The position numbers and the translations under genes were made by a program. Under the pieces are notes generated by a model. The model saw only the letters and a list, made by a program, of their open reading frames with translations, was not told where the DNA came from and searched no databases. From sequence record PQ671644.1: DNA of 64,000 bases. One strand, written 5' to 3'. The DNA is from Escherichia phage DCP80. The number at the start of each line of letters is the position of its first letter. Position 1 is the first letter of the stretch. Below are positions 5,739 through 48,688 of this stretch, one piece after another.

Positions 5739-5788
5739 AAGGTATAACGGGACTTCTAACGAGGTCCCAAAAAATAAGGACAAAAACA

Positions 5789-8759: not shown

Positions 8760-10859
8760 ATGATGGCTGAAGTTTTTGCAGGAACTAAAGTACGTATGGC
8801 TGTTAACGAAGACCTAACTTCTAACAGCCCTATGTACATTGACGCAGGGTATGTACCCTTAGATAATCTGGTTGCATTTCCAGAGATAACCACACAAACT
8901 GAAACATACAAAATGGAATCATATAACGAGGATTATGAGCGCGTTATATTAGGAGCATATGGTTCCGCCCCAGTTACAATCCAAGTTGCCGAAGTTGCCG
9001 ATGATGAAGCACAAGGTATCCTTGACAAGTATCTTAACTCAATGAAAATGTTACGATTCCGTATCATGTGGGTTGAAAAGGAATTACCTCCGGTTGAAGG
9101 TATGCCTGCTGAAGAACAATACAGTGGTCCAACTGCAATCTTTGATGCTTATGTGACTTCTACTCATCTGTCGGGTGGTGAAAACCAAACTGTTATTCGC
9201 AGTTATACATTATCCCCGTTTGGAAAAGTTACACGTGATGTAACAAACCTTGGTGAGTACGTTCGTCGTGGACAATATGGCGTAGGTGGTGGTACAACTG
9301 ATTATCCGGGCCCTACAGACACCAATAGTTATGAAGGTAACCGTTGGGTCAACCTGTCGGCAGCAAGCTCCCAGAACCCATTTGCGGACTCCACAGGGGC
9401 TATGACAGTACAATCAGGTGAGCAAGGTTGGGCATTAGTCGGTTCTTCAACTGGTAACATGATGCTCCGTGCCAGAAACCGTCAGCTATCACGTGTTGGT
9501 GAGTGGACCAAAATCTATACCTCCGCTGAACCACCTACTGCAGCTGAAATTGGTGCTATCCCAACAGTAGGTGATGCTTATGTACAAGGTAACTTGAAAG
9601 CAAACAGCTTCTACGTAACTGATACTGCTGGAACAACTATCACCACGCAGATTAACAAAGACGGTATCACCACTAACGTGTTGAAAATCACAGGCTCTGT
9701 TAACTCTCCTAACTCTAATATCAGCGGCACATCAACGCTTAATATTGTAACGGCGAATAAGTTAACTGCTCAGGAATTGATTTCTCCATTGGCTCGTATT
9801 GATACTGGTACAGTTACAACGTTGGGTTCAACTGATTTCACAGCTTTCGACGCAGTTGTTAATAACAAGTTGGTTGCGAAAGAAGCAGAGATTGATGATT
9901 TAACGATTAACACAAGATTCCACGTAGGTGCAGGTGCTTCGTTCCAGATTGCTGGTAACGTACAATCAGCAACTGTAACTGCAACGGATAAAGTTACAAC
10001 CAAGAACCTTGAAGTACAAGAGGTTGAAAAGGTTGGACAAGTTAACCCTAACCGTGTTTTTATTCACTCTGTAAATGAGACTCCAGAAGCATACGACTCC
10101 ATGAACACAGGTATATCGCCTAAGTTGTCGTTATCCCAAGCAGCAACATTAGTTGGATATGCAGGTGAATTTAAACCAGACGGCTCAACACTGAAAGCTT
10201 ACGAGTTTACAAACAACTTGCAACAGTTAGAAAATGCCAGAATTACCAACTTAACAGTTGTGAATGGAATTGGTGTTAATAACTTATCATTCAGTGGGGC
10301 AATCACAGCTGGTAATAGCGATGCTAAGATTTTGTTAGAAACTCCGGACCAAGTTATTGTCTCAAATGATGCAACTCCTGGAGTAGCTGCAGCTCACTGG
10401 ACTGAAATTCGAGCAGGTGTTATCTACATCGATGGTAAACCAATTTGGCACGATGGTAATATCCCTAACGTTGTACAAATGGGCGGTGTTCCATTAAATG
10501 GTAACTCAACAATAACTGGTGATGTAACTGTTAAAGGCCGTGTTTCTGCTGATTCAATGCGTGTCGGTCCAAACATTTTGATGACAACGGACCTTATAAA
10601 TATTGGTATCGGAACAATCAAAATCGGTGGACAAGAAATTTTCCATCCAGGTAACCCTCCAACTGCTGCACAATGTAAAGCTGTTCCATTAGCTGGTAAC
10701 TCGAGAATGGACGGTGAATTGACAGCTAACAAACTTTACGAGTACAACACTGTTACTTCTACACAAGAACGTGTTTTTAGCCCGTTAAACAGACCAACTG
10801 CAGCAAATGCCGGTGTTATGGTTCTGCTTGGTGACGTTATCGATTTTGGTTTAGAATAA
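8760..10859 (+). CDS. Tail-tube-like N-terminal domain fused to a long fibre with tail-fibre repeats
   Basis: The N-terminal roughly 165 aa align with the 164-aa tube protein at 13211 (FAG..V....ED.T...P..AGY..VP....AFPE...Y...Y.R). The C-terminus has repeats such as IWHDGNIPN..GGVPLNGNSTITG and IFHPGNPPTAAQ..AVPLAGNSRMDG. Confidence 0.6.
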   Translation: MMAEVFAGTKVRMAVNEDLTSNSPMYIDAGYVPLDNLVAFPEITTQTETYKMESYNEDYERVILGAYGSAPVTIQVAEVADDEAQGILDKYLNSMKMLRFRIMWVEKELPPVEGMPAEEQYSGPTAIFDAYVTSTHLSGGENQTVIRSYTLSPFGKVTRDVTNLGEYVRRGQYGVGGGTTDYPGPTDTNSYEGNRWVNLSAASSQNPFADSTGAMTVQSGEQGWALVGSSTGNMMLRARNRQLSRVGEWTKIYTSAEPPTAAEIGAIPTVGDAYVQGNLKANSFYVTDTAGTTITTQINKDGITTNVLKITGSVNSPNSNISGTSTLNIVTANKLTAQELISPLARIDTGTVTTLGSTDFTAFDAVVNNKLVAKEAEIDDLTINTRFHVGAGASFQIAGNVQSATVTATDKVTTKNLEVQEVEKVGQVNPNRVFIHSVNETPEAYDSMNTGISPKLSLSQAATLVGYAGEFKPDGSTLKAYEFTNNLQQLENARITNLTVVNGIGVNNLSFSGAITAGNSDAKILLETPDQVIVSNDATPGVAAAHWTEIRAGVIYIDGKPIWHDGNIPNVVQMGGVPLNGNSTITGDVTVKGRVSADSMRVGPNILMTTDLINIGIGTIKIGGQEIFHPGNPPTAAQCKAVPLAGNSRMDGELTANKLYEYNTVTSTQERVFSPLNRPTAANAGVMVLLGDVIDFGLE

Positions 10860-10867
10860 AATTAATC

Positions 10868-10881
10868 GGGGCTTCGGCCCC
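10868..10881 (+). terminator. C(UUCG)G hairpin (no T-run, possibly an RNA stabiliser)
   Basis: ggggcttcggcccc, 9 nt after the stop codon. Confidence 0.45.
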
Positions 10882-10898
10882 CTAAATGAGGAATTAAA

Positions 10899-13136
10899 AT
10901 GGCTGACGTACGCGCAAATTCAAAATTTAAATTTCGTAGGTCTCGTAACCCTGGTTATATCCCTAAAGCAGCAGACCTATTAGAAGGTGAACTGTTTATC
11001 AACGTTGCTGATAAAAAATTGTATACAAAAGATGAAGAAGGTGGCGTAATTATTGCTATTGGCGGTGGTTCAGGCGGCGGCGGTGGTGAATTAGGCGGTG
11101 GCGCAATTATCATTCGTCCGGAAGACGCAGTTAACAGCAGCGGCAACTTGATTCTTTCTACAACTAAAGTTGGTGAAGCTTCTTATGCTCGTGGTTTATC
11201 TGGTCTTAATATGAAAATGCAGCAATATATACCAACTGATTCAGACCCAATAAACGTTGACTCGCTTTATCTGGAGATTGGCTCCAAAACCCAACTCAAC
11301 GATGGAGCAGCCAACCCTTATGTTGAAATTCCCGGTAAATTGGCATTTGTTACATCTCGCGGAAACTCATCAGGCGTAACAACTGCATCACCTGGTGCAA
11401 CAGTAATAACTGCAAAACCTGGTGCAACATGGCACCGTGAATTTGGTACCCCTGTTGATGAATCAACACTAAAACTTGGCGACGGCACGGTCACGATTTC
11501 TTCAAAAGACATTATAATTGGTAAGAGCACATCAGATGTTTTTACAAAATCTATACAAAATAATATGGTTTATATTAACAGCCCAAATCTTATTTTAGGT
11601 GGTTCTGTTGACATTTCTGGATTAAAAACTTTAAACGGCGGCGCAACCTCAACAATTGATGTTGGTGCTTTAACTTCACAAGGTAACACAGTTGTTAAAG
11701 GTGACCTTTATGTTGAAGGTGAAATTATTTCTGGCTCCCCAACTCCAGGTCCAAAGCCTTTAGAAGACTTAGCTGGATTAAGTTTAAAATTAACATATGG
11801 TGCAACAGTTGGTACTAATATTGATGCTGGTGGTTATGTTCGTTTAAAAGACGAATTAACTGTTAAAGGTAAACAAAATACAACTGATTACGAATTTAGT
11901 ATCCAACATCGTAATCGTTCCGGTGAAGACTGGGAAGGTAACACAATTTTTTATTCAGAAACTTTCTTAAAATCAACTAATGATGTTTATTTTGTTTCAG
12001 AAATTAATGAATTTACAACTTCTGACCCAACTTATCAAAACATAAGAGCAGCTAATATCCGTGGTAGCAATGGTACCTTTAGTGGTAATTTAACTGGTTA
12101 TTATGGTGGATTCTTTGATAATAATATCACAATCAACGAAAACGGTATTAATTTAGCAAATGATTCTGGTTATTCACTTGGATTAAACTTCTTCAGTAAT
12201 AAATCTGTTGCAATCAGTCTGAAAACTGAAGCCGATGGTGCTGGTCTGGTAACCGATTATAATGCATCTTATACCAAGTTGAAAGATGATGAATTTGTTA
12301 TCGGTACCTCAATTGGTGATGGTTTTAAAGGTGTTACAATCAATAACGTTAAAGAGACAAACGCGGGCGTAACTGTTACTCCTTCCGTTTCTTCTACAAC
12401 TGTTAAACTGATTGAAGCTAACTATGGTAACTTTTCTCCATATATCAGTTCAACGTCCAACAGCATCACTATTGCACCTGATGAACAATCTAAAGTAACT
12501 TTTAGTAACACTGGTGTAGTATTTGGCCGTGAAGTTACAACTCCTGCTGTTCAATTAGGTCAGGCCAGGGTTGAGCAAACTGGTAACATCCTGGGTGGTA
12601 CATGGGGTGTAGACCTTAAGAGTTATATCAATAACCAGATTGCAAATGGATTTGTTAACGTTACAACCAACACTGTACAACTTCCTGATGCATTAATCAG
12701 TGCAGACGGTAACGTAACTGGTGGTATCTGGGGCACTGATAAGACTTTGAAAGAGTATATCGATGCTAATGCAGGCGGTGGCGGCGGTTCAGGTGGTCGT
12801 AAAGAAGCGGTTAAAGTTTGGACTGGTTCTGTATCCGGCGCGGCGAACACAAGCCCGATGACTATTACTTCTACAGAAGATGGTGACTTCCGTTGCGGTG
12901 GAAAGTTAATGCTTAAAGAATCATCTGGTGCTTGGTTAGAGTATGATTTTGATTGTCCAGATTCAGCATCACCTCCGGCTGGCACTGTTCAGTTTAACAG
13001 ACAAATCTTTTCTCAGAACACAGGCGCATCTGATATGATTCTTGCTCAGAACAGCATGTCCGGTACAAAAACTACATGGTCGCTTTACGGTCACGCTCGT
13101 AAAACATACACCGAAGCTTGGTGGCGTCCATACTGA
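10899..13136 (+). CDS. Tail fibre protein (745 aa)
   Basis: N-terminal fibre motif LLEGELFINVADKKLYTKDEEGGVI. Two Gly-rich linkers (GGGSGGGGGELGGG and AGGGGGSGG). A distinct C-terminal roughly 110-aa Cys-containing domain. Confidence 0.6.
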   Translation: MADVRANSKFKFRRSRNPGYIPKAADLLEGELFINVADKKLYTKDEEGGVIIAIGGGSGGGGGELGGGAIIIRPEDAVNSSGNLILSTTKVGEASYARGLSGLNMKMQQYIPTDSDPINVDSLYLEIGSKTQLNDGAANPYVEIPGKLAFVTSRGNSSGVTTASPGATVITAKPGATWHREFGTPVDESTLKLGDGTVTISSKDIIIGKSTSDVFTKSIQNNMVYINSPNLILGGSVDISGLKTLNGGATSTIDVGALTSQGNTVVKGDLYVEGEIISGSPTPGPKPLEDLAGLSLKLTYGATVGTNIDAGGYVRLKDELTVKGKQNTTDYEFSIQHRNRSGEDWEGNTIFYSETFLKSTNDVYFVSEINEFTTSDPTYQNIRAANIRGSNGTFSGNLTGYYGGFFDNNITINENGINLANDSGYSLGLNFFSNKSVAISLKTEADGAGLVTDYNASYTKLKDDEFVIGTSIGDGFKGVTINNVKETNAGVTVTPSVSSTTVKLIEANYGNFSPYISSTSNSITIAPDEQSKVTFSNTGVVFGREVTTPAVQLGQARVEQTGNILGGTWGVDLKSYINNQIANGFVNVTTNTVQLPDALISADGNVTGGIWGTDKTLKEYIDANAGGGGGSGGRKEAVKVWTGSVSGAANTSPMTITSTEDGDFRCGGKLMLKESSGAWLEYDFDCPDSASPPAGTVQFNRQIFSQNTGASDMILAQNSMSGTKTTWSLYGHARKTYTEAWWRPY

Positions 13137-13138
13137 TA

Positions 13139-13159
13139 GAAGGCCTTCGGGCCTTTTTC
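13139..13159 (+). terminator. C(UUCG)G hairpin plus T-run terminator
   Basis: aaggccttcgggccttttt. Confidence 0.7.
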
Positions 13160-13164
13160 AGCGT

Positions 13165-13172
13165 TATAAATA
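13165..13172 (+). promoter_or_regulatory. T4-type late promoter TATAAATA
   Basis: gTTATAAATAatattg lies 39 nt upstream of the ATG at 13211. Confidence 0.7.
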
Positions 13173-13210
13173 ATATTGTAAATTAACCCCAAATAAAAGG
13201 AAACTAAACA

Positions 13211-13705
13211 ATGTCTACATTTGATATTTTTGCAGGTTCGTATGTATCGGTTTTCATGACTGAAGACATCACTAACAAACTCCCGGCTTTCGCAGGTTAT
13301 AAATTTGTTCCAGAAACGGGTGCTTTCCCTGAATCCGGTTCAGAGCGTCAGGTAATCGATGTTCCTAACTACTCTGATAACTATAACCGTAAACTGGTTG
13401 GTCGTGGTTCTGTTCCGGCTATTGACCTTACTGTTAACTACAAAGCTGGCTCTATCCATGATACTCTTTCTAAATTGTCTGATGACGGTAAACGCTTCCA
13501 GATTAAAATTGTATACTGGATGGACGGTACTTATACTGATGGTATCGCAATCATCTATAATGGCTTCTTGAGTTCAGACCGTACAACTGGTTCTGATAGT
13601 TCTGCTGTTCAGAAAGTGTTTACGTTTGAAGTTGATGGTGGCCCGGTTGCTCGTGCTATCGTTACAGGCAGCGGTGAGAAACCTACCGAAGAGCCTATCG
13701 TTTAA
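13211..13705 (+). CDS. Major tail (tube) protein (164 aa)
   Basis: Lies immediately upstream of the chaperone pair and tape measure. Strong codon bias, own late promoter and terminator. Confidence 0.65.
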   Translation: MSTFDIFAGSYVSVFMTEDITNKLPAFAGYKFVPETGAFPESGSERQVIDVPNYSDNYNRKLVGRGSVPAIDLTVNYKAGSIHDTLSKLSDDGKRFQIKIVYWMDGTYTDGIAIIYNGFLSSDRTTGSDSSAVQKVFTFEVDGGPVARAIVTGSGEKPTEEPIV

Positions 13706-13710
13706 TGAAC

Positions 13711-13732
13711 GGGACCTTCGGGTCCCTTTTTT
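13711..13732 (+). terminator. C(UUCG)G hairpin plus T-run terminator
   Basis: gggaccttcgggtccc followed by tttttt. Confidence 0.75.
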
Positions 13733-13735
13733 GTT

Positions 13736-13743
13736 TATAAATA
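13736..13743 (+). promoter_or_regulatory. T4-type late promoter TATAAATA
   Basis: tTTATAAATAttg lies 34 nt upstream of the ATG at 13777. Confidence 0.65.
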
Positions 13744-13776
13744 TTGCTATATAATAACCTAACCAAAGAGGCTGAT

Positions 13777-14133
13777 ATGAACTTAGATGAATTAATGGAA
13801 GCGGTAACCCCTGAAGGGTTGGAATTCCTGGAAGTAAAATTAAAAGACAAAACTTTTAAATTCTATTGTCAACCAATGGACCTGAAAACTTATCAACTTT
13901 TTACAATGAACAGAGACCTTGCTGCTGTTGCTCCTTACGTTATTATGAAAGGGATTGTTGATGTTGACCGTAACCCTATTTTTAAAACAGCAAAACAAGT
14001 AACAAACCTGCCCACATGGTTGCAGAGTGATTTATTCAACTACGTTTTCGCATTTACAACTCGTTTGCCAGAAGACGTTGAGATTGAACAAAGTTTAAAG
14101 CCGATTGGGTCAAAAGATTCCGCTACCGATTAA
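13777..14133 (+). CDS. Tail assembly chaperone (gpG analogue)
   Basis: ATG with SD aaagagg (M12 of the track ORF). Sits between the tube and tape measure genes. Confidence 0.6.
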   Translation: MNLDELMEAVTPEGLEFLEVKLKDKTFKFYCQPMDLKTYQLFTMNRDLAAVAPYVIMKGIVDVDRNPIFKTAKQVTNLPTWLQSDLFNYVFAFTTRLPEDVEIEQSLKPIGSKDSATD

Positions 14134-14462
14134 TTCTTCGTGGATTGCTTCCAGAGATTATTGATAGCATGTCATTGCATGAATTTAAAGAGCTCTATAT
14201 TATGGATACCTATTTGGAACCGCAAGGACCAAACGCAGACGAAATGAGAGCAGCCAGACAAATTCATGCTCAATATATGACATCTCCAAACATGACCGCA
14301 AAAGCTGCTAAGGAAATTAAAGTTACAAACTTTACAATGCTTGGTAAAAATGTGTTCAAAACTCAGGAAGACATCATTGAAGAGAATAAAATCAAACAGA
14401 AAGAGGCTATGGAGCTTCAATTCGGCGACCTTTTGGCCCAAATGAAAAAAGAGGAAAAATAA
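13777..14462 (+). CDS. Tail assembly chaperone GT-type frameshift fusion (13777..14100 joined to 14100..14462)
   Basis: Canonical G/GT arrangement upstream of the tape measure. The downstream ORF lacks a convincing independent start (TTG at 14145). Confidence 0.5.
14094..14100 (+). promoter_or_regulatory. -1 programmed frameshift slippery heptamer T_TTA_AAG
   Basis: The heptamer is in phase with the G frame (codons TTA 14095 and AAG 14098). The -1 frame is open from 14088 through 14462. Confidence 0.6.
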
Positions 14463-16877
14463 ATGGCTGGTTCAAATTATAATTTAGAGATTACAGGTGA
14501 TAATAATAAATTTAAGCGTGTTGTCTCCGATTCCATGAAGCAGCTTGATGATTTATCTAAAAAAACCGGTGGTGCTTTTGCAAGCATCTCCGGTCAAATG
14601 GGTAATATGTCAGGACTGTTAAGCTCTATTAAAGGACTCCCTGCGCCATTGATGGCTGTTGGTGCTGCTGCTTCTGCGGCTTCATTAGCTTTTGATGCTT
14701 TTAACAAATCAAGAGACCAAGTTGCTGACCTTAATAAGTTGTCAACTGCAACAGGATTAACTGTTGAAGAATTACAGAAAATAACAAACGCTTTCAAAGA
14801 AACTGGTATTGAAATGGAACAATTCACGGCTATTAACCAGGACACGCTTGATAAGTTAGCAGACGGTGTTAAAGATGGTTCCGGTATTGTACAAGACCTG
14901 AAAGATTATGGAATCGAAGTACAACAATACTCCGAATTTATTAACCAGGCAAATGGTGGTTTAAAAGCTGTTATTCGTACGTTCTATGAAATGCAAGCAG
15001 CTGGTAAATCTCAAGCAGAAATGATTAACATGATGGAAGCAATGGGTTCAGACGCTTCTAAACTGATTCCTATTCTTAAGAATCTGGGTTCAGAACAATT
15101 AGCTCTCCAACACATCAATGGACAATCTGTTACTGTTACTAATGAAATGGCCGAATCTTACAAAGCATATGAAACAGCATTGTCAAAAATGTCAACAGAA
15201 GTTGATGCTCTGCGTAACGATGCAATGGTACCATTTGTTGAAATCATGACGGATATCCTGGAAGATGGTGGAAAGGTAATTCAAATTATTAACTCCATTC
15301 GTACTGATGATTCACAGGAAAACATCAAACGTTTAACAAAAGAATTTGGTGCATTAGCCGAATCTATTAAATTCGTTGCGGACACGTGGGACATGTTAAC
15401 TGGACTGGAACATTGGCTTGATGATGCAAAAGATAAATCCCAATCATGGATTGCAGATGGATTGGCAAGTGCAAGTAACAATGCGTTTGGTACGAATTTT
15501 AAAACAGATTCGATGATTAAATCTAACGCGCAAATTTCTGCCCGTGATTATGATATATCAGGTCCAGCTCCGCAAGGTGATTGGAAACCGGCAGCTCCCA
15601 AAACTCCTGACCCTAATGTCAATATGTATAACAAGGAAGATAACGATAAGGCTAAAAAGGCTAAATCTGCACAAGATGCGGCTAAGAAAGCAGCAGCGGA
15701 AATGGCTAAGCAGTTGGCTGAACGTAAGGCTATGCTTGCAGAAATTAATACAATTAACCAGAGTCTTTATACACAACAAGCATCAACCTTCGCAGCTGAA
15801 TCACAGCAGGCGGAAGCAAACGTTGCTAAGTTGCAGGAATTGCTCAGTAAAGGTATTATTACACAGCAAGAGTTTGAAACTAAACGTAAAGCTATCATAG
15901 ACCAATCAAGCTTCAACCTTGAACAAACTTTGCTTGGTACAACTGATGGTGACCTGTCAACTATCCTGGCTGGTATCAATCAGGTTTATACAGACACTAA
16001 CAATAACTTGAAATCCCAGTTGGAAGCACGTCTGATTACTCAGGAACAGTATAATCAGAAACTGGAATTAAACGAACAGATGCATACAGCAAGGATGTAT
16101 GAATTCCAAGTTGCAAAGGACAACTCCCTCCAGGCTCTTCGTGAATTAGGATTCACAACTGATGAAGAAAACTTCCAGATGGAAATGGAAAAAATGGACG
16201 AACAATTTGAGAAATTACAAGCTGATAACCAAGCTCGTTATGATGCACAGATTATTTCTTATGAAGAATTTCTGGCTTCTAAAGCTCGATTGGAAGATGT
16301 TTATGCAGCCAAATCAACTCAGTTGGAAAATGACCGAATGAAATCCAACCTGGCCGTTGGTGAATCTCTGGCAACTTCTATGCAGGGAATCTTTGCAGGT
16401 GCTTTTGGTGAACAATCTAAAGCTGCTAAAGCCGCGTTTGTTGTATCAAAATCTTTAGCAATCGCTCAGAGTACAATGGACGCTCACTCTGCTGCAACTA
16501 AAGCTCTGGCAACTTATCCACAACCAATGGGTGGAATCATGGCTGGTGCTGCTTATGCTCAGGTTCTGGCACAGGTTGCATCGATTAAATCCACCAACCT
16601 AACTGGTATGGCTCACGATGGCATTGATACCGTTCCAGAAGAAGGCACATGGTTACTCCAGAAGGGTGAACGTGTGGTTGATAACAGGACTAACCAAGAC
16701 CTGAAAGATTTCCTTCGTGATGGTTCCGGTTCAGGTGGTAATCCGATTGAGATTAATGCCCCATTAAATATCAGTGGGAACGTCGATTCTTCTGACAGAA
16801 TGGTAATGGATGCGATTAACCGTTATCCTGAAGAGGTTGCTCGCATGGTCGAGAAAGCACAATCTAAACGCATGTAA
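14463..16877 (+). CDS. Tape measure protein (804 aa)
   Basis: Long alpha-helical, coiled-coil and Ala-rich protein in the canonical position. The C-terminal block GMAHDGIDTVPEEGTWLLQKGERVV resembles lambda-H C-terminal domains. Confidence 0.85.
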   Translation: MAGSNYNLEITGDNNKFKRVVSDSMKQLDDLSKKTGGAFASISGQMGNMSGLLSSIKGLPAPLMAVGAAASAASLAFDAFNKSRDQVADLNKLSTATGLTVEELQKITNAFKETGIEMEQFTAINQDTLDKLADGVKDGSGIVQDLKDYGIEVQQYSEFINQANGGLKAVIRTFYEMQAAGKSQAEMINMMEAMGSDASKLIPILKNLGSEQLALQHINGQSVTVTNEMAESYKAYETALSKMSTEVDALRNDAMVPFVEIMTDILEDGGKVIQIINSIRTDDSQENIKRLTKEFGALAESIKFVADTWDMLTGLEHWLDDAKDKSQSWIADGLASASNNAFGTNFKTDSMIKSNAQISARDYDISGPAPQGDWKPAAPKTPDPNVNMYNKEDNDKAKKAKSAQDAAKKAAAEMAKQLAERKAMLAEINTINQSLYTQQASTFAAESQQAEANVAKLQELLSKGIITQQEFETKRKAIIDQSSFNLEQTLLGTTDGDLSTILAGINQVYTDTNNNLKSQLEARLITQEQYNQKLELNEQMHTARMYEFQVAKDNSLQALRELGFTTDEENFQMEMEKMDEQFEKLQADNQARYDAQIISYEEFLASKARLEDVYAAKSTQLENDRMKSNLAVGESLATSMQGIFAGAFGEQSKAAKAAFVVSKSLAIAQSTMDAHSAATKALATYPQPMGGIMAGAAYAQVLAQVASIKSTNLTGMAHDGIDTVPEEGTWLLQKGERVVDNRTNQDLKDFLRDGSGSGGNPIEINAPLNISGNVDSSDRMVMDAINRYPEEVARMVEKAQSKRM

Positions 16878-22958: not shown

Positions 22959-23426
22959 ATGAAAGCAATAGAGTACAAACATATGTTATACGAAAGACAA
23001 CATGGAATTTGTCTGCTATGTAAACTTCCGCTTGAAGATGTTAAAAGTTCCCATCTAGACCACGACCACGCTTTAACAGGTCCTAATGCTGGATTCTGCC
23101 GAGGACTTCTATGTCCTAGTTGTAACGTCTTGGAAGGAACTTTGCTGCATAAATTCAACAGAAGTGGATTAAAAAGTAAAACAACCTTTACAGCTTATCT
23201 TAATAACCTGCTATCTTATTATGCAAATCCACTGCATGAAAAGATACACCCTAATTTTATTAGAGATAAGGTGAAGGCTGTTTCACGGATGAGCAATCAA
23301 AGTATCATAGCTGAAATTGAAAAACTGACCTTTAACCTCCCAGCTGATAAGTCAAAGAAAGGACTTGTCAGTTTCTATCGTAAGGCTCTTAAGAAGTCCC
23401 TGGAGGACGTATGTCTGCAAAGTTAA
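22959..23426 (+). CDS. 49: Recombination endonuclease VII (T4 gp49 homologue)
   Basis: Matches the remembered T4 gp49 sequence: C..C....HLDHDH.LTGPNAG.CRGLLC..CN..EG, HKFNRSGLK and IHPNF. Confidence 0.88.
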   Translation: MKAIEYKHMLYERQHGICLLCKLPLEDVKSSHLDHDHALTGPNAGFCRGLLCPSCNVLEGTLLHKFNRSGLKSKTTFTAYLNNLLSYYANPLHEKIHPNFIRDKVKAVSRMSNQSIIAEIEKLTFNLPADKSKKGLVSFYRKALKKSLEDVCLQS

Positions 23427-25759: not shown

Positions 25760-26251
25760 ATGTCAACCAAAGACCCGATTTATCTTAACCAAAAACAAAT
25801 CTCCGAATCCTACGGAGTTACGCGCCAGACGATTGCAGAGTGGCAGAAGCGTGAAAATCCAATTCCGTGGATTGCTGGACGGGGATATCCGATGCCTGAT
25901 GCCGGAGTTTGGATTGCAGAAAATTTTATAAAAACTTTAAGACAGAACAACGAAGCACAGGATTTTAATTATCACAAGACAAGGAAGATGGCAGCAGAAG
26001 CGGACATTGCTGAAAGGGAAAACATGCTCGAGGCGCAATCCGTTATCAGAACAGATTTCGTAGAAGAGGAGTTAAGGAATTTTGTTACAAGAGTTAAGGA
26101 AACCCTCCGCGTCATTCCATTGAAGTATGCAGAAGATATTGCTATAAGAGCAACAAGCACATCAGAAGTTAAGAAGGCATTAAGGGAAGCGATTGATAAA
26201 TCCCTGAACGAGATTGACCTGTTGATGTTGTTTGAAGAGCATGAAGAATAA
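25760..26251 (+). CDS. Terminase small subunit, lambda Nu1-like
   Basis: The N-terminal wHTH LNQKQISESYGVTRQTIAEWQKRENPI resembles lambda Nu1 VNKKQLADIFGASIRTIQNWQEQGMPV. YHKTRKMAAEADIAERENM resembles YERHRLTRAQADAQELKNA. Confidence 0.7.
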   Translation: MSTKDPIYLNQKQISESYGVTRQTIAEWQKRENPIPWIAGRGYPMPDAGVWIAENFIKTLRQNNEAQDFNYHKTRKMAAEADIAERENMLEAQSVIRTDFVEEELRNFVTRVKETLRVIPLKYAEDIAIRATSTSEVKKALREAIDKSLNEIDLLMLFEEHEE

Positions 26252-26271
26252 TCCATTCCCCCAATAAAAAA

Positions 26272-26287
26272 GGGACCCGAAGGTCCC
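26272..26287. terminator. Bidirectional hairpin between convergent genes
   Basis: aaaaaagggacccgaaggtccctta. Confidence 0.7.
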
Positions 26288-26292
26288 TTACG

Positions 26293-26532
26293 TCATTCCC
26301 ACTTAATCGTTGCTACTCGCTCATACACGAGACGTAAATCAATCTTTCCTTTTACGGTATATGTTCTTTGAACTTCCCCTTGTGCTTCCACTGTGAGGCT
26401 ATCAATTAATTCATCGTTTTGATACAATCGATATAGGTTTTTCTGACGGTTTGAAATTGTTAAAGTACGTTGAACTTCTTCTTTAGTATCTTCCAATTTA
26501 TGGAGAGCTTTTAGACTAGTTGATTCGTACAT
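26293..26532 (-). CDS. Hypothetical protein (79 aa)
   Basis: ORF with SD aaggaaa. Confidence 0.5.
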   Translation of the reverse strand: MYESTSLKALHKLEDTKEEVQRTLTISNRQKNLYRLYQNDELIDSLTVEAQGEVQRTYTVKGKIDLRLVYERVATIKWE

Positions 26533-26549
26533 AGTTTTCCTTTTTAAAG

Positions 26550-26563
26550 GGGACCGAAGTCCC
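26550..26563 (-). terminator. C(UUCG)G hairpin on the minus-strand transcript
   Basis: Plus strand gggaccgaagtccc. A T-run follows on the minus strand. Confidence 0.6.
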
Positions 26564-26890
26564 TTATGCGTATAAGTGTTTTTCTTTCTTACGAAGACAG
26601 TTTTCAGAAGCTGTCAGGAGCTGCAAGTTACTTGGAGCGTTGTTCTTGCGGTTAAAATCGATATGGTCAATGTGCATACCCTCAGGAACTTCAGAATCGT
26701 TATCAAGCATCCACACGATTCGGTGAGCATACTCGTTATTATGAACCGGGTGGAAAACATGGATATAACCAGAAGGTAATTCGTAACCAGCTTCTTTGCC
26801 AGCGTGCTTACCAGTGGTGTAAATCAGTTTGTCATCAACGATTGCATAGTGAGCTTTAACGATGTCGAGAGTAATTTTAGTACGTGCCAT
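26564..26890 (-). CDS. HNH endonuclease (108 aa), late-expressed
   Basis: AHRIVWML....PEGMHIDHIDFNRKNNAPSNLQLLTASEN (HNH_3-type). Has its own TATAAATA promoter and is convergent with the Nu1-like gene. Confidence 0.8.
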   Translation of the reverse strand: MARTKITLDIVKAHYAIVDDKLIYTTGKHAGKEAGYELPSGYIHVFHPVHNNEYAHRIVWMLDNDSEVPEGMHIDHIDFNRKNNAPSNLQLLTASENCLRKKEKHLYA

Positions 26891-26910
26891 TTGATATACC
26901 TTTTAAAAAT

Positions 26911-26932
26911 GAAGCACCGGAATTGATGCTTC
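26911..26932 (-). promoter_or_regulatory. Conserved 5'-leader hairpin, copy A
   Basis: mRNA gaagca-tcaattccgg-tgcttc, downstream of TATAAATAAAAGTATGAAAAC. The stem covaries with copy B while the loop is identical. Confidence 0.5.
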
Positions 26933-26947
26933 GCGTTTTCATACTTT

Positions 26948-26955
26948 TATTTATA
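26948..26955 (-). promoter_or_regulatory. T4-type late promoter TATAAATA
   Basis: The reverse complement reads gTTATAAATAaaagtatgaaaac, 58 nt upstream of the start at 26890. Confidence 0.7.
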
Positions 26956-26969
26956 ACAGCTTTTCGGGC

Positions 26970-27152
26970 TTATTCAGAAGTCAGAATAAATTTTTGATAC
27001 TGTTTACCAGTTATCTTGTATCTGATGAAGTTGAACAAATCGAACAAATATCCAAGAGGAATCAGAGCAATCAGAAGTGGTGCCATGATGAACATCAGGA
27101 TTGCTTGGATAACAAACAGAATTGTTTCACCCAGAAATTTTAAAATAAACAT
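26970..27152 (-). CDS. Small membrane protein (60 aa, 2 predicted TM)
   Basis: Hydrophobic ILFVIQAILMFIMAPLLIALIPLGYLF. Confidence 0.5.
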   Translation of the reverse strand: MFILKFLGETILFVIQAILMFIMAPLLIALIPLGYLFDLFNFIRYKITGKQYQKFILTSE

Positions 27153-27164
27153 AGTTCTCCCGTT

Positions 27165-27178
27165 GGGGCCGAAGCCCC
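27165..27178 (-). terminator. C(UUCG)G hairpin (intercistronic)
   Basis: Plus strand ggggccgaagcccc. Confidence 0.45.
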
Positions 27179-27185
27179 AGATAAG

Positions 27186-27350
27186 TTAGCGAATTGATTT
27201 TTGTTCTTTAGCGCGATTCTTAATACCAAGTCCTTGCATCGTGGCTTCGATAACCTCGATTGCTTTAACACGTTTTTCATACTCTGCCAGAGTGATTTGT
27301 TTTTTGGCGAATTGTACATAAAGGGCAGACATAGCTTCGTAACTGTTCAT
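27186..27350 (-). CDS. Hypothetical protein (54 aa)
   Basis: Start moved to M18 of the track ORF. The longer ORF would run through its own promoter and leader. Confidence 0.45.
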   Translation of the reverse strand: MNSYEAMSALYVQFAKKQITLAEYEKRVKAIEVIEATMQGLGIKNRAKEQKSIR

Positions 27351-27368
27351 AGGATTTCTCTTTAAAGG

Positions 27369-27390
27369 GAGACACCGGAATTGATGTCTC
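27369..27390 (-). promoter_or_regulatory. Conserved 5'-leader hairpin, copy B
   Basis: mRNA gagaca-tcaattccgg-tgtctc, downstream of TATAAATAAATGTATGAAAAC. Confidence 0.5.
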
Positions 27391-27406
27391 GTTGTTTTCA
27401 TACATT

Positions 27407-27414
27407 TATTTATA
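27407..27414 (-). promoter_or_regulatory. T4-type late promoter TATAAATA
   Basis: The reverse complement reads gTTATAAATAaatgtatgaaaac. Confidence 0.7.
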
Positions 27415-27422
27415 ACGGTCTT

Positions 27423-27713
27423 TTAACGCTTTTTAAAACCACCGAAGAAGGTGCCAGATAATGATTGAGCGATTTTAGAAGCTTCATAGTTGTTTGATTC
27501 AACTTCACCATACTTCCAACCTTTACCAAGGAGTTTCAACCATTTCAATCTAGCGATTGTCACATCATGACCTGCGCAAAGGAGTTCAAATTCTTCCAGT
27601 TCATCATTAAGTAGATAAGCAAGTTTTTCTTTATCCACAGCGTATGTCCAATTGGTACCTTCGAATTCGAAGAAAACTGAATCACCGTGGGTTTCTACAT
27701 TTTTAATCTTCAT
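27423..27713 (-). CDS. Hypothetical protein (96 aa)
   Basis: ORF, start/stop-coupled to the upstream gene. Confidence 0.5.
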   Translation of the reverse strand: MKIKNVETHGDSVFFEFEGTNWTYAVDKEKLAYLLNDELEEFELLCAGHDVTIARLKWLKLLGKGWKYGEVESNNYEASKIAQSLSGTFFGGFKKR

Positions 27714-27904
27714 TAGATTTCCTTTACAATAAATTTATAAGTTACTTGGGACTCTTTAAAGACAGCTTCCGTTGCCCATTCTTCAGGTTTTTTCGAAAGC
27801 TCTGTGTGATAAAGCATTGCAGCTTCACCCTCTTGTGCTTCCAAAGCTTCTATGTAGCTTCGGCCTTCTTTAAGTTTAATAACACCGCAATCTATGATTC
27901 TCAT
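27713..27904 (-). CDS. Hypothetical protein (63 aa)
   Basis: ORF with ATGA overlap with the upstream small ORF. Confidence 0.5.
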   Translation of the reverse strand: MRIIDCGVIKLKEGRSYIEALEAQEGEAAMLYHTELSKKPEEWATEAVFKESQVTYKFIVKEI

Positions 27905-28050
27905 TTCTTGTCCAGTAGTTGTTGGTAAAATTCGATATGAGCATAAACATCTTGAATCCCGTGTAGGTAATCATCAAAGGTGATGTCCAGGTCTTCAAAG
28001 AAGTTATGATAAATTTCTTGTAGTTTGGTATAACCGTTTTCGTTAGTCAT
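27901..28050 (-). CDS. Hypothetical small protein (49 aa)
   Basis: ATG 26 nt downstream of the TATAAATA at 28076, with SD cgagg. Below the track cutoff. Confidence 0.4.
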   Translation of the reverse strand: MTNENGYTKLQEIYHNFFEDLDITFDDYLHGIQDVYAHIEFYQQLLDKK

Positions 28051-28075
28051 AAGTACCTCGTTGTTTTCATAATTT

Positions 28076-28083
28076 TATTTATA
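28076..28083 (-). promoter_or_regulatory. T4-type late promoter TATAAATA
   Basis: The reverse complement reads agTATAAATAaaattatgaaaac. Confidence 0.65.
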
Positions 28084-28087
28084 CTGA

Positions 28088-28216
28088 TTAATACTGGTTT
28101 AAATGGCGCCACAACGTGGTTCTGGATATACTATGTTTCTTCAGAACAGATTTCTTATCTTTACGACGAGCATTTTTATACTCGTCTGCAATTTGATTTA
28201 ACTTCTCGTTGGTCAT
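28088..28216 (-). CDS. Possible small HTH protein (42 aa)
   Basis: TAATG-coupled to the upstream ORF. Contains SISRTTLWRHL, an HTH-like segment. Confidence 0.3.
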   Translation of the reverse strand: MTNEKLNQIADEYKNARRKDKKSVLKKHSISRTTLWRHLNQY

Positions 28217-28947
28217 TAAAATTTTACGCATAACAGGTTGTCCAGTTGGTCTTCATGGGTTTCGATTAAGATTTCAGATTCCAGAGCTTCAGCAGCCTGA
28301 ATCATTGTGGCAGTATCACCACCAGCTTTAGCAACGTGAATCACAGTATCGAATTTACGTTTGTAAAGATTTTTCAGTTTAACTTCTTTAGTTTTCTGTG
28401 CAAAGTGTTTTTCAGATTTACGTTTAACTTCAACCAGTTCTTCTTTAACAACTTCAACTTCTTCTTCAGCTTCCTGGATAGCAACGTTTGCTTTCTTCAG
28501 AGCAGCATGTTGTGCACGAATGATTTCCATCATTTCTTCCACAGATAATTCCTCAAGATTGTTGATGTCAAATTTGACAACTTCTTTCTTTTCAACATGG
28601 TGATTAGAATTAACGGTATCGATTTCGTAAATCCAAGTTTTGTCACCGCGACGAGTCATTTCCAGGTTCTGCTGGATATAACCTTTACCTACTTTGTGAA
28701 TCACACGAGCTGAATTCCAATCAGTATGAACTACACAGATTGAATTTTCAAATTCTGCAACAAAGTAATCTCCCTCACCAAAATCAACTGCTTTAGCTTT
28801 AACTGCACGATACAGAGAACGATTAGCTGAACCAATTTCTTGTAACAAAGATTTAACAGAACTAGCATGAATTACTTTGGTTGCATTTTGTACAGACATG
28901 TTGCTTTCAGCTTGGTTTTCGCATTTTTTAAAAAGTTTGATAATCAT
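28216..28947 (-). CDS. Hypothetical protein with an acidic coiled-coil centre (243 aa)
   Basis: ORF with SD aaggaaa. Confidence 0.55.
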   Translation of the reverse strand: MIIKLFKKCENQAESNMSVQNATKVIHASSVKSLLQEIGSANRSLYRAVKAKAVDFGEGDYFVAEFENSICVVHTDWNSARVIHKVGKGYIQQNLEMTRRGDKTWIYEIDTVNSNHHVEKKEVVKFDINNLEELSVEEMMEIIRAQHAALKKANVAIQEAEEEVEVVKEELVEVKRKSEKHFAQKTKEVKLKNLYKRKFDTVIHVAKAGGDTATMIQAAEALESEILIETHEDQLDNLLCVKF

Positions 28948-28986
28948 GTGTTTTCCTTTATTTGTTAATCGTGTTATTATTTAGAA

Positions 28987-29136
28987 TTAAAAAGTGATGT
29001 GTAATTCTTTGTTGATTTCAAAGATGACAGTTGCTAATGTCAAGTTGTGTTCTTTACACCAATCAGCACGTTTAGCCGGTGGCAATTTGTTTAACGCACA
29101 GAAGATTTTCATTAATTTAATCTGATAAGAATTCAT
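28987..29136 (-). CDS. Hypothetical small protein (49 aa)
   Basis: ATG with SD gaggt, 73 nt downstream of the TATAAATA at 29209. Confidence 0.35.
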   Translation of the reverse strand: MNSYQIKLMKIFCALNKLPPAKRADWCKEHNLTLATVIFEINKELHITF

Positions 29137-29208
29137 GGTGACCTCAAGTGTTTCGATGTTTGTTAGGGTTTAAAAAAGAGGTTGTTCACCTCGTCGCTTT
29201 CATACATT

Positions 29209-29216
29209 TATTTATA
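29209..29216 (-). promoter_or_regulatory. T4-type late promoter TATAAATA
   Basis: The reverse complement reads gtgTATAAATAaatgtatgaaagc. Confidence 0.65.
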
Positions 29217-29225
29217 CACTAATTT

Positions 29226-29750
29226 TCGGCTCATTAGACAATCAGAAAAGTTCAATCCGGATTCAATCGCGTCAGGAGAATTTCCATGATAATATTTATC
29301 TCTTTATACTCACAAAAAACATTGAAACACATTTTGCAGTTTTTGGACTTTTAATCAAAAAAGGCTGTTTTTGATATTTCCGGGGGGTGCCTATGCCTTC
29401 CGGAGCACTTTTTGAGGCAAAAGTTATAAGAAACCTATTTTAATATATCAAAAGGTAATAACAAAGGCCTTTTTTCCCTCAAAAAACGTCAGAAAAAGGC
29501 TGTTTTTTCAGCTTATTTTGAGCCTTTTTTGAAGGTTCATTTTTGGGACTTTTAATCAAAAAACAAGGGAATTTTTCGGGAGCAGTACAGGGGTACTATC
29601 AGATGATAGGAGCTATCATTTAGAAGGGAGAATTGTGATTACTTATGACCGTTATACGATTGTATCGCGATTATTTGGTCAAATAACGACGAAATAATCA
29701 AAATAAATCATCGAAACACTTAGAAAACAGGCTGTTTTAGGTATAAAAAT
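29226..29750. repeat. ORF-free roughly 525-bp region with dispersed repeats
   Basis: ggacttttaatcaaaaaa occurs at 29345-29362 and 29546-29563. aaaa(a/c)aggctgtttt occurs at 29358, 29493 and 29724. T/A-tract rich. Confidence 0.8.
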
Positions 29751-29766
29751 GGCCCCTTTCGGAGCC
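29751..29766 (-). terminator. Hairpin plus T-run terminator (minus strand)
   Basis: mRNA ggctccgaaaggggcc followed by attttt, 7 nt after the stop at 29773. Confidence 0.6.
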
Positions 29767-29772
29767 TAAAAT

Positions 29773-29940
29773 TTATTTCATACGCAGGTATTTTTCATAA
29801 CTAACTTTTGACAGAGCCAAATAGTAAGCTGCATCTTTTTCTCCCGATAATTTACCTTCAGCAACTGTTGCACAATCTTCTTTGAAAGTTGCTTCCCAGG
29901 AAAATCCATCAAGCCAATCGGAAAATTGTTGTTCGTTCAT
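29773..29940 (-). CDS. Hypothetical protein (55 aa)
   Basis: Start moved to M14 (SD gaggt), adjacent to the stop of the upstream ORF. Confidence 0.45.
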   Translation of the reverse strand: MNEQQFSDWLDGFSWEATFKEDCATVAEGKLSGEKDAAYYLALSKVSYEKYLRMK

Positions 29941-30148: not shown

Positions 30149-30288
30149 ACTTCCTCCTTATTAACTTAATAATAGGCTCCCGCTCAGAAACCTATGATAA
30201 GGTACCACACATGAATTTAATCAAAGGTCTTCACATCACTAAAGACCTTTTGTTAAACACATGAATCAGGTCATCACTCCTGATACTT

Positions 30289-30606
30289 TTATTTATAACG
30301 GGATTTATTCATCCATTCAAATATGCCAGGGTTCCATTCGATGTTACCCATCGCTACATAATGATTGATTGCTTCTCGCAGAGACACCTGGAAGAATTCG
30401 GATTCGTCAAGTAATGAAACAATGATTTCCCCTTGTGCCTGTAAATCATCAACTGTCATCATGGAAAGAATTTCATATGCTGATTGAATTTCGTCTTCTG
30501 TGAAATCTGTGTCGAACCAATCATTAAGGTTATCATCAGATTTGTAATTATTGTAATAAGCCATACCTTCGATAACCAGATTGATAATTTCATTTACGTT
30601 GTTCAT
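30289..30606 (-). CDS. Hypothetical acidic protein (105 aa)
   Basis: Start moved to M55 of the track ORF. The longer ORF crosses the N gap and the promoter. Confidence 0.55.
   Translation of the reverse strand: MNNVNEIINLVIEGMAYYNNYKSDDNLNDWFDTDFTEDEIQSAYEILSMMTVDDLQAQGEIIVSLLDESEFFQVSLREAINHYVAMGNIEWNPGIFEWMNKSRYK
30290..30297 (-). promoter_or_regulatory. T4-type late promoter TATAAATA overlapping the upstream gene's stop
   Basis: The reverse complement reads cgTTATAAATAaaagtat. Confidence 0.55.
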
Positions 30607-40993: not shown

Positions 40994-41040
40994 NNNNNNN
41001 NNNNNNNNNNNNNNNNNNNNNNNNNNNNNNNNNNNNNNNN
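40994..41040. other. Assembly gap (N47)
   Basis: Run of n. Confidence 1.
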
Positions 41041-42833: not shown

Positions 42834-42986
42834 ATGACTAAATACTGGATTACACTCGCTACCGGTGAATATGGTTTTCTCTGGGCAGAGAAAAAGCCTT
42901 TGTTTGCAGAATTTGTAACAATCACGTGCGAAACCTGGGAAGGTGAAACTTTCATGGCGTATGGTCAAGTCTATAAAGTAGAATAA
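42834..42986 (+). CDS. Hypothetical small protein (50 aa)
   Basis: ATG (M13 of the track ORF) with SD aggag. Confidence 0.4.
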   Translation: MTKYWITLATGEYGFLWAEKKPLFAEFVTITCETWEGETFMAYGQVYKVE

Positions 42987-42991
42987 AATTT

Positions 42992-43015
42992 GGTCTCCTT
43001 CGGGAGACCTTTTTA
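42992..43015 (+). terminator. C(UUCG)G hairpin plus T-run
   Basis: ggtctccttcgggagacc followed by ttttt. Confidence 0.7.
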
Positions 43016-43018
43016 TTA

Positions 43019-43047
43019 TGTACAAGCCACAAAAATTGTGTTAAGAT
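43019..43047 (+). promoter_or_regulatory. Early sigma70-type promoter
   Basis: aTGTACA-17nt-TAAGAT. Confidence 0.5.
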
Positions 43048-43064
43048 GTCTTTGAGGTGAAAAT

Positions 43065-43349
43065 ATGATTATGTCTGACGGAAGTTTAGTTAATCTGCAG
43101 AATGTCGCACGGTGTATTATGGAAGCAGGCCTGAGGAAGGTACAGGAGCTCCCAGATAGCGACAGGAAGCGAAGTTACTTGTTAGCTGTAAGAACAGCAG
43201 CCATGAGCATTAAGGCTGGCCAGAAGGTCCCTGAGGAGCGAATTGAAGCACTTCTTGCATTGATATACCATGACCAAGAACATAAAGCTACCATGCGTAG
43301 TATGAGAAAAATATTACAGGAGATTGGAAATGACGAACTTCAAAGTTAA
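43065..43349 (+). CDS. Hypothetical protein (94 aa), copy 2
   Basis: Homologue of 40569..40853. Confidence 0.5.
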   Translation: MIMSDGSLVNLQNVARCIMEAGLRKVQELPDSDRKRSYLLAVRTAAMSIKAGQKVPEERIEALLALIYHDQEHKATMRSMRKILQEIGNDELQS

Positions 43350-43533
43350 TATGGAGCTGTTTGATAAAGCTGTTCATAAAGAATACCGCGTTATCCAACG
43401 ATTTTTTGATATAAGAGAAGCTGAAGAGTTTAAAGAACGCTTCAAAGAAATCCGTATTAAAATAGCTTCAGACACCGCAACAAAGGATGAACTTCTTGAA
43501 GTTGCAGAATTAATCAAACGTAACATAAAGTGA
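43324..43533 (+). CDS. Hypothetical protein (69 aa), copy 2
   Basis: Homologue of 40385..40594. Confidence 0.5.
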   Translation: MEMTNFKVNMELFDKAVHKEYRVIQRFFDIREAEEFKERFKEIRIKIASDTATKDELLEVAELIKRNIK

Positions 43534-43540
43534 GAAAAAC

Positions 43541-45775: not shown

Positions 45776-45776
45776 T

Positions 45777-47440: not shown

Positions 47441-47443
47441 ATT

Positions 47444-48290: not shown

Positions 48291-48337
48291 ACCAACTGTG
48301 TAATAATGTCCTCATACCAACAAATAAGGACATTATC

Positions 48338-48613: not shown

Positions 48614-48624
48614 TTAAAAAGTAG

Positions 48625-48653: not shown

Positions 48654-48688
48654 GATTCCATACTGAGTTACCAACCTGGAGAAACAAA

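Follow-up and report, generated by a model that had tools for sequence, protein, structure and literature searches.

The window analysed here, a 64,000-nucleotide (nt) stretch of Escherichia phage DCP80 (sequence record PQ671644.1), carries a row of small genes on the minus strand between 26.2 and 30.3 kb, and the question raised by this locus is what a small hairpin does in two of its leaders (26891-27414), where it stands between a putative late promoter and the next gene, with a stem that differs between the two copies and a loop that does not. An initial annotation of these leaders had taken the compensating stems and the fixed loop as the sign of a selected RNA or DNA structure recognised in a sequence-specific way. 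The locus belongs to a genome of its own. The window from 1 to 30710 starts and ends with identical 111 bases, an exact terminal repeat, and the same gene set recurs in independent public assemblies on contigs of 30,478 and 29,973 bp; this part of the window is therefore a complete genome of about 30.6 kb.

Both stems are present as they had been described, gaagca/tgcttc at 26911-26932 and gagaca/tgtctc at 27369-27390, and the 14-nt core that they share, CATCAATTCCGGTG, occurs exactly only at 26915-26928 and 27373-27386. The geometry had to be revised, as the supposed 6-bp stem and 10-nt loop are in fact an 8-bp stem and a 6-nt loop, AAUUCC, with a U.G and a C-G pair extending the stem. The copy behind the promoter labelled P3 (27369-27390, minus strand) reads GAGACAUC-AAUUCC-GGUGUCUC, with the 5′ arm at 27383-27390, the loop at 27377-27382, the 3′ arm at 27369-27376 and a folding energy of -10.2 kcal/mol; the copy behind P4 (26911-26932, minus strand) reads GAAGCAUC-AAUUCC-GGUGCUUC, with the 5′ arm at 26925-26932, the loop at 26919-26924, the 3′ arm at 26911-26918 and -9.9 kcal/mol. 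The folding z-scores of these 22-mers are about -4.4 to -4.9, and no shuffle folds equally well. Sense folds of the hairpin (-8.5 to -10.2 kcal/mol) are 3-4 kcal/mol more stable than antisense folds (-5.9 to -6.3 kcal/mol), because the G.U pairs turn into A.C on the other strand. Given this asymmetry and the G.U pairs themselves, the sequences indicate that the AAUUCC hairpin is a selected structure in the sense-strand RNA, and not in DNA. Of the annotated "RNA or DNA" structure only the RNA half thus stands, and the proposal of a late-transcription co-activator site on the DNA found no support.

Homologues of the 243-aa, 96-aa and HNH proteins of this genome come from Logan/ENA assemblies only, and they include lineage A, with 8 contigs (L073-L081) from eight different samples that are 94.5-99.4% identical to the window, and lineage B, with L087-L089 from three samples. 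The motif, which had been known from the window alone, is present in these relatives, with both hairpins found in lineages A and B. In lineage A both hairpins are invariant, with none of 44 nucleotide columns variable among the 8 strains versus 11% of all alignment columns; the probability of 44 unchanged columns is 0.89^44 = 0.006. Lineage B is much further away (HNH protein 67-71% identical, third codon positions 57-69%, orf54 94% amino acid identity) and keeps the gene order unchanged and both hairpins at equivalent positions. Its leaders read TATAAATAATTATGTAAATTCAACGAG[G/T]CATCAATTCCGATGGCTC and run on into TTTTT or ATTTTT; they keep the loop and upper stem of the window, the U.G pair is now U-A, and pair 4/19, U.G in one copy, is mismatched as G.G in the second. 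Across the eight distinct leader sequences, 98.4% of the pairing cells pair, versus 34-52% when the partner columns are slid. Two pairs show double-sided changes and one a one-sided change (U.G to U-A, pair 7/16); pair 3/20 is either G-C or A-U, and pair 4/19 is A-U, G-C or U.G. All four substitutions between the P3 and P4 stems of the window are compensatory, and a covariation score as high as that observed was reached in only 1 of 500 column shuffles. The earlier reading of covariation around a fixed loop as the mark of a selected structure is thereby borne out, both by the pairing statistics and by the second lineage, for a sample of four different hairpins from two lineages whose paralogues are non-independent owing to homogenisation.

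The conservation is not evenly spread over the leader. The apical 14 nt (CAUC-AAUUCC-GRUG) are 13/14 identical between the lineages in each orthologous pair; the lower stem is 10/16 identical, with compensation, the tail to the ATG 13/18 (P3) and 16/21 (P4), and the whole non-hairpin leader 46/71, which is similar to synonymous sites. The difference between the tip and the rest has a Fisher p of 0.005 if the two copies are treated as independent, and a binomial p of 0.02-0.04 for a single copy. By this comparison the apical 14 nt are under extra sequence constraint. Such a fixed tip hints at a specific binding factor, and the sequence-specific recognition of the loop suggested before is plausible for this sample of two lineages.

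A covariance model run over the window, the relatives, the Gaprivervirus CJ20, the distant relative L072 and prophage relatives found only the two copies per genome and a weak match at the hairpin behind P1 (18.7 bits, E 0.14); no copy was found in L072 or the prophage relatives. There was likewise no AAUUCC-loop hairpin or copy in CJ20, so the hairpin is not mimicry of a helper signal. Rfam 15 gave no gathering-level match in the window and, at E<=10, only chance-level ones in 26200-29800, none of them on the hairpins, and BLAST of the region or leader versus INPHARED phages, PLSDB plasmids and 5,426 E. coli genomes returned no homologue except the capsid gene. Nor was a kissing partner with a GGAAUU loop found in the 30.6 kb genome. 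Looser pattern searches produced matches that we rejected. The TATAAATA-N(10-35)-core pattern had 5 matches in IMG/VR and JGI metagenomes, all stemless and due to chance; GANNCATCAATTCCGRTGNNTC had 1 + 51 matches in IMG/VR and GTDB genomes, 19 of them with complementary NN, which are unrelated and lie mostly inside a conserved coding gene (reverse strand ETPELMP, which we take to be a MetK motif).

The promoters ahead of these hairpins were examined through the extended 21-nt box TATAAATAAAWKTATGAAARC, which has exactly four exact matches in the window, all on the minus strand (26935-26955, 27394-27414, 28063-28083 and 29196-29216), and none in 100 shuffles; the four minus-strand boxes that had been annotated, with all their coordinates, are thus confirmed. 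A fifth minus-strand TATAAATA, at 30290-30297, has TATAAATAAAAGTAT in common with them, and other hairpins directly follow it. The exact 8-mer TATAAATA is present at 5/5 minus-strand sites, and the 40 nt upstream are unconserved, with no conserved -35 and no Mot box at these promoters; a sigma70 promoter scan found sites no commoner than in shuffles. The window holds 17 copies of TATAAATA versus 3.8 expected, and 16 of the 17 lie inside the 30.6 kb genome. On the plus strand (n=11), several follow directly 3′ of GC-rich terminators, seven stand shortly 5′ of the Shine-Dalgarno sequence and ATG of virion genes (head, tail), and four are intragenic. Given the exact match to the T4 consensus, it is a well-founded inference that the TATAAATA sites are T4-type late promoters, with a predicted start, derived from what is known of T4, about 6 nt past TATAAATA. 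Among 30 TATAAATA sites of CJ20, T-A-T is enriched at +12 to +14, the same offset as the TATAAATAnnnnTAT of the 30.6 kb genome, and the box as far as TAT agrees with the late-promoter context at the plus-strand sites and in CJ20. P3 (27394-27414, minus strand) consists of TATAAATA at 27407-27414 and a lineage-specific extended box, with the start predicted at about the A at 27401, and P4 (26935-26955, minus strand), an exact motif match, of TATAAATA at 26948-26955 and the extended box. The hairpins begin 24-25 nt downstream of the first T of TATAAATA, about 11-12 nt past the predicted late start, and end 18-20 nt ahead of the next start codon.

The extended box as a conserved functional element did not survive the comparison. 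After TATAAATA it is 7-10/16 identical between lineages, and it is shared by the paralogues within each genome, with no difference between the lineage B paralogues and little between those of lineage A. Since paralogues agree within a genome and diverge between lineages, the box is homogenised, and its similarity indicates concerted evolution, by gene conversion or recombination between repeats, rather than a conserved site. Even within lineage A the box varies after TAT (P3 is TATGACAACGAG in L074 and TATCAACGAG in L079, and the P2 box is TATCAAACGACGAGG in L078 and L081), and the spacing from promoter to hairpin shifts by 3-5 nt among strains through indels in the ATG or A-run. A leader peptide or leaderless open reading frame (ORF) at the ATG of the box, which coincides with the predicted +1, was ruled out because this ATG is not conserved: it is lost or shifted in L074, L079, L078 and L081 (lost at P3 in L079 and at P2 in L078 and L081), and the box peptides vary in length and frame. 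Gene content also differs at the cassette borders, where orf60/61 are 38% identical and another gene lies upstream of P3′ (the lineage B counterpart of P3) in L087. Among the 8 strains no mini-circle or clean cassette indel was seen; the boxes evolve concertedly, and orf60/61 and the gene upstream of P3′ are replaced. A search of IMG/VR for the exact box gave 33 matches, which we also rejected, all being single and unrelated, mostly in marine T4-like contigs where the ATG is the real gene start. Several of these marine contigs (in L001-L033), unrelated to the 30.6 kb genome, carry TATAAATAAAAGTATGAAAAC with the ATG as the real start codon, which suggests that leaderless late mRNAs may be made there.

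Downstream of the hairpins, the tail of P3 (27351-27368, minus strand) reads CCUUUAAAGAGAAAUCCU and holds the weak Shine-Dalgarno sequence of orf54 (ATG 27350), its lineage B version being UUUUUAAAGAGAAAAAAU; the tail of P4 (26891-26910, minus strand) reads AUUUUUAAAAGGUAUAUCAA, a U-tract followed by the Shine-Dalgarno sequence of the HNH gene (ATG 26890). The two tails are otherwise unrelated. The unit behind P3 (26970-27350, minus strand) comprises orf54 (27186-27350, helical) and the small orf60 (26970-27152, two predicted membrane helices), and the unit behind P4 (26270-26890, minus strand) an HNH_3 endonuclease (26564-26890; PF13392, E 7e-15), orf79 (26293-26532) and a GC-rich UUCG terminator (26270-26289).

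From this arrangement we tentatively favour, with slightly less than even confidence, a reading in which the hairpin is part of a repeated cassette of late promoter, stem-loop and Shine-Dalgarno sequence and acts both as a leaky terminator or attenuator and as a leader structure. The cassettes would break up the minus-strand small-gene cluster into late units that are transcribed separately. An RNA polymerase with a T4-type late sigma factor (gp55-like, supplied in trans) would initiate at the predicted position behind TATAAATA, and the 8-bp hairpin, which the predicted folds keep in both read-through and late-start RNAs with the Shine-Dalgarno sequence and AUG unpaired, would form in both of these transcripts. 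Together with its U-tract, it would serve as a leaky intrinsic terminator or attenuator that closes the upstream unit, dampens the unit after it and gives the RNA a structured end. Paralogous cassettes would be homogenised by recombination, as in the PeSL cassettes discussed below, and a specific factor would probably read the tip, coupling the unit of orf54 and the two-helix membrane protein to that of the HNH endonuclease and orf79.

The likeness to an intrinsic terminator or attenuator comes from the U-tract and from the position after a stop codon. A U-tract follows three of the four hairpin versions (P4 and the lineage B P3′ and P4′, as UUUUU or AUUUUU), a terminator scan calls P4 and P1 terminator-like, and all copies lie directly downstream of a stop codon, 33-60 nt past that of the upstream gene. 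Several points weigh against this role. The U-tract of P3 in the window is poor (CCUUUAAAG, CCUUU only) and drew no terminator call, and the unambiguous terminators of the 30.6 kb genome are of another kind, GC-rich with UUCG loops and T6-7. A terminator 12-40 nt past its own promoter would cut its own transcripts and would be sensible only if leaky or regulated, and a plain terminator leaves the frozen loop and upper stem, as well as the covarying lower stem, unexplained. The leader of the gene for the major capsid protein (MCP, a protease-capsid fusion), at 5731-5788 on the plus strand, has TATAAATAAAGGTAT and, at about +6, a hairpin GGGACUUC-UAAC-GAGGUCCC of -12.1 kcal/mol followed by an A-run; with no U-tract there, promoter-proximal hairpins in this genome need not be terminators. 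The comparison, moreover, comprises two lineages with non-independent paralogues, and start sites, termination, stability effects and the binding factor are all inferred.

Among described objects, the nearest are the PeSL and PmSL cassettes of T4-type phages, in which a promoter is combined with a stem-loop that terminates upstream transcription and mediates recombination (Arbiol et al., 2010, PMC2839356; Comeau et al., 2014, PMC4122927), and by analogy the element would be a variant promoter/stem-loop cassette or a terminator-like leader hairpin. As in those systems, a repeated intergenic module of promoter, stem-loop and Shine-Dalgarno sequence lies beside small ORFs of unassigned function, its copies would be similar enough to recombine, and gene content shifts at the cassette borders. 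The promoter here, however, is an 8-bp T4 late promoter and theirs is of the sigma70 (early) or MotA (middle) type; the stem-loop of PeSL is mostly between -35 and -10 or over -10, whereas here it lies downstream of the predicted start and hence in the new transcript; and the host of the module is a 30.6 kb siphovirus-like genome and not a T4-like myovirus, with a hairpin tip that is constrained in sequence. The leaders of T4 gene e and I-TevI also place a T4-type late promoter beside an RNA hairpin 5′ of a lysis or endonuclease gene (HNH here); in them the hairpin hides the ribosome-binding site, and late RNA, which starts within the hairpin, escapes (PMC3014915). The present hairpin, in contrast, lies wholly downstream of the start, occurs in both RNA classes and leaves the Shine-Dalgarno sequence and AUG free, so occlusion of that type was rejected, both being unpaired in the two predicted folds and the promoter lying entirely upstream. 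Ordinary intrinsic terminators share with it a stem-loop of about -10 kcal/mol just past a stop codon and a U-tract (in three of four AAUUCC versions and in P1), but the GC content here is moderate, one copy has no proper U-tract, the stem-loop sits within about 40 nt of its own promoter, and its loop and upper stem are conserved in a way that terminators do not need. Finally, by analogy with phage operators that are read at the tip (lambda nut boxB with N, the MS2 coat operator, T4 gene 43), the present hairpin is small, joins an unchanging loop to a stem that covaries and occurs in few copies per genome just downstream of promoters or upstream of start codons; it differs from them in its AAUUCC loop, with no boxA, no GNRA-like pentaloop and no sequence resemblance, and no N-like, coat-like or polymerase partner was found in this comparison. 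A lambda nut site consists of boxA and a 5-bp boxB stem with a purine-rich pentaloop, recognised by an N-like protein, and an assignment to that type was rejected given the 8-bp stem, the AAUUCC loop, the lack of CGCUCUUA and the lack of an Rfam match even at E<=10.

The frozen tip, which termination does not explain, is what another reading would put first, namely that the hairpin serves above all as the operator of an RNA-binding protein with sequence specificity, which reads the AAUUCC loop and the CAUC/GRUG upper stem and co-regulates both units. We consider this possible, though on the unlikely side, as a serious competitor to termination or as something that acts on top of it. A fixed tip on a covarying base is typical of protein-bound hairpins such as the MS2 operator and lambda boxB, and the contrast seen between the lineages, with the apex kept in both copies while the lower stem and flanks drift, has just this form; there are, besides, exactly two copies per genome, both in 5′ leaders and both 18-20 nt from a start codon. 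The protein could be a translational repressor, a stabiliser or an anti- or pro-termination factor, encoded by the 30.6 kb genome or by a helper phage. Candidates would be a product of the P1 or P2 unit or, autogenously, orf54, which lies directly 3′ of one copy and is the best-conserved protein of the cluster (94% amino acid identity). The choice of orf54 is a positional guess, and its structural model does not favour it, being a helix-turn-helix hairpin (pLDDT 88) for which all Foldseek matches in the PDB have E>1; a recognisable RNA-binding fold was rejected for this simple helical protein, which lacks an informative fold match. Pfam and PHROG gave no RNA-binding match for the cluster proteins, simple occlusion is not evident with the Shine-Dalgarno sequence and AUG outside the hairpin and unpaired, and the hairpin behind P1, apparently a truncated paralogue without the tip, is equally conserved. 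The two-lineage sample and gene conversion between the paralogues count against the operator as well.

An RNA-level role without recognition and a role in DNA are less favoured. It is doubtful that the hairpin does no more than shield the 5′ (or processed) end of late mRNA from host or helper RNases, with no part in termination, no specific ligand and a loop identical through shared ancestry, even though unrelated promoter-proximal hairpins follow other TATAAATA sites (P1, P5, the MCP leader at 5731 and the third promoter of L087) and mRNAs of E. coli and T4 are known to gain stability from 5′ stem-loops (reviewed in PMC3014915). At its predicted 5′ end the transcript has about 11 unpaired A/U-rich nucleotides before the stem begins, and the U-tracts and the frozen tip would be left unexplained. 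Protection from RNase E requires a stem within a few nucleotides of the 5′ end. A DNA-level site, be it a hotspot of recombination or gene conversion, an HNH target, a packaging signal or a palindromic operator (for example of the helix-turn-helix-like orf47), would suit repeats that flank a cassette and evolve in concert, with an HNH gene and a TerS-like gene adjoining, and the crossovers of PeSL recombination were mapped in or near the stem-loop (PMC2839356); it is nonetheless very improbable, as the half-sites covary where a protein-bound palindrome would keep its consensus, the G.U pairs become A.C mismatches in the weaker antisense fold, and the change from U.G to U-A strengthens the pairing of the RNA. 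That the similarity reflects a recent functionless duplication, with covariation by chance, is barely credible. The original observation was made on two copies (n=2) and the paralogues are homogenised, points that speak for it, but chance would then have made four of four substitutions compensatory, kept the hairpin in a second lineage with further pair changes, and left 0/44 hairpin columns variable among strains, with two tails that are otherwise unrelated.

The genomic context of the hairpin is more striking than the hairpin itself. The 30.6 kb genome encodes a large terminase, a portal, an HK97-type protease-capsid fusion, a tail tube, a tape measure, a distal tail protein, a J-like tip and fibres, together with a T4-type lysozyme, a T4 endonuclease VII homologue (22959-23426) and the HNH endonuclease; it showed no recognisable replication, integration, RNA polymerase or sigma genes, nor any gene resembling gp55 or gp33. 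The remainder of the window is T4-like and of the genus Gaprivervirus, with an rIIA 99.6% identical to that of CJ20, and gp55/gp33-type genes are present in this co-recorded phage type. The sigma factor for the late promoters of the 30.6 kb genome would have to come from a T4-like phage, and from its sequence this genome is a candidate helper-dependent virus or satellite of T4-like phages. Its co-occurrence with a T4-like phage is seen in this record only; exact-protein look-ups (the 243-aa protein, rIIB and MCP) returned none on record. Relatives of the capsid gene are 59-65% identical in IMG/VR prophage contigs and have about 75% nucleotide identity in E. coli prophages, and these prophages show no TATAAATA enrichment. 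Neither INPHARED nor PLSDB nor any of 5,426 complete E. coli genomes contains this genome, and a literature search found no publication describing one of this kind. An unlikely further reading would make the AAUUCC hairpin the handle, as operator or attenuator, for a dedicated regulator of an undescribed kind of helper-dependent virus, which would be expressed by gp55, gp33 and the clamp of a co-infecting Gaprivervirus and, inside the late programme of that helper, would hold a temporal sub-class of its own (orf54 and the two-helix membrane protein; HNH and orf79; lysis and packaging).

If the cassette reading is true, the principle of joining promoter and stem-loop, described for early and middle promoters, extends to late promoters and also holds outside T4-like myoviruses, and the locus offers a compact testable case of an 8-bp late promoter and an RNA structure setting expression levels. 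If the tip is read by a factor, the hairpin would be a new small RNA operator with a clean mutational design, in which the base is free and the tip fixed. The hairpin leaders would be the sole recognisable internal regulatory signals of the 30.6 kb genome, and a virion-encoding genome apparently run wholly on T4-type late promoters would be a new sort of phage parasite.

The remaining minus-strand promoters differ in what follows the box. P2 (28048-28083) has the identical box type without a hairpin; there the shared ACGAGG, with its GAGG at 28056-28059, provides the ATG at 28050 with a Shine-Dalgarno sequence. At P1 (29172-29216) the box is followed by the hairpin GAGGU-GAACA-ACCUC (5 bp, 29178-29192) and T6; this leader has 1 of 81 columns variable among strains, and its hairpin looks like a truncated paralogue of those behind P3 and P4. 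P5 (30210-30297) carries TATAAATAAAAGTAT; one hairpin (30265-30284) stands at its predicted +1, and a second, strong one (30210-30263) comes after it. The two-hairpin leader of P5 folds at -27.6 kcal/mol (z -6.0, with no shuffle equally stable) 5′ of two ORFs of 68 aa, and may be a structured leader or a small RNA.

Several minor observations concern other parts of the record and its relatives. The window is made of several sequences joined by N runs (30711-20, 40994-41040, 49791-800, 56743-60 and 62887-940). Within 30721-64000, about 6 kb, as four stretches between 34833 and 40993, recurs inverted within 42925-49790 at 94-99% identity, the rIIA-rIIB block in this inverted repeat being 96% identical, so that the record mixes two strains of the helper-type phage. 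Two long, repeat-rich non-coding stretches (80-1250 and 29217-29770) are candidate origin, packaging or regulatory regions; in the 30.6 kb genome a 34-nt hairpin-forming repeat is found at 82-115, 202-235 and the contig end, repeat units of about 150 bp at 700-767/849-916 and 796-828/944-976, and GGACTTTTAATCAAAAAA at 29337 and 29538, and AAAAAGGCTGTTTT motifs also occur in the repeat-rich stretches. The distant relative L072 (Logan SRR23924977, a 23.8 kb contig; region 9200-16000) has 46% identity to the 243-aa protein, an orf49-like gene and T4_baseplate-like genes, and several of its TATAAATA sites are followed by a hairpin and T-run and then by a repeated CATGAAACAAT-type motif, so the arrangement of promoter then hairpin exists in a different genome. 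Inside the 666-aa protease-capsid fusion ORF (5789-7789), TATAAATA with a Shine-Dalgarno sequence and ATG at 6286-6330 (plus strand) could form an internal late promoter that drives a separate C-terminal capsid part. The N-terminus of the 745-aa fibre (10899-11080, plus strand) matches families of the T4 gp37 N-terminus (phrog_1699 and phrog_19966, residues ~9-60), a likeness that hints at exchange of fibre modules with T4-like phages.

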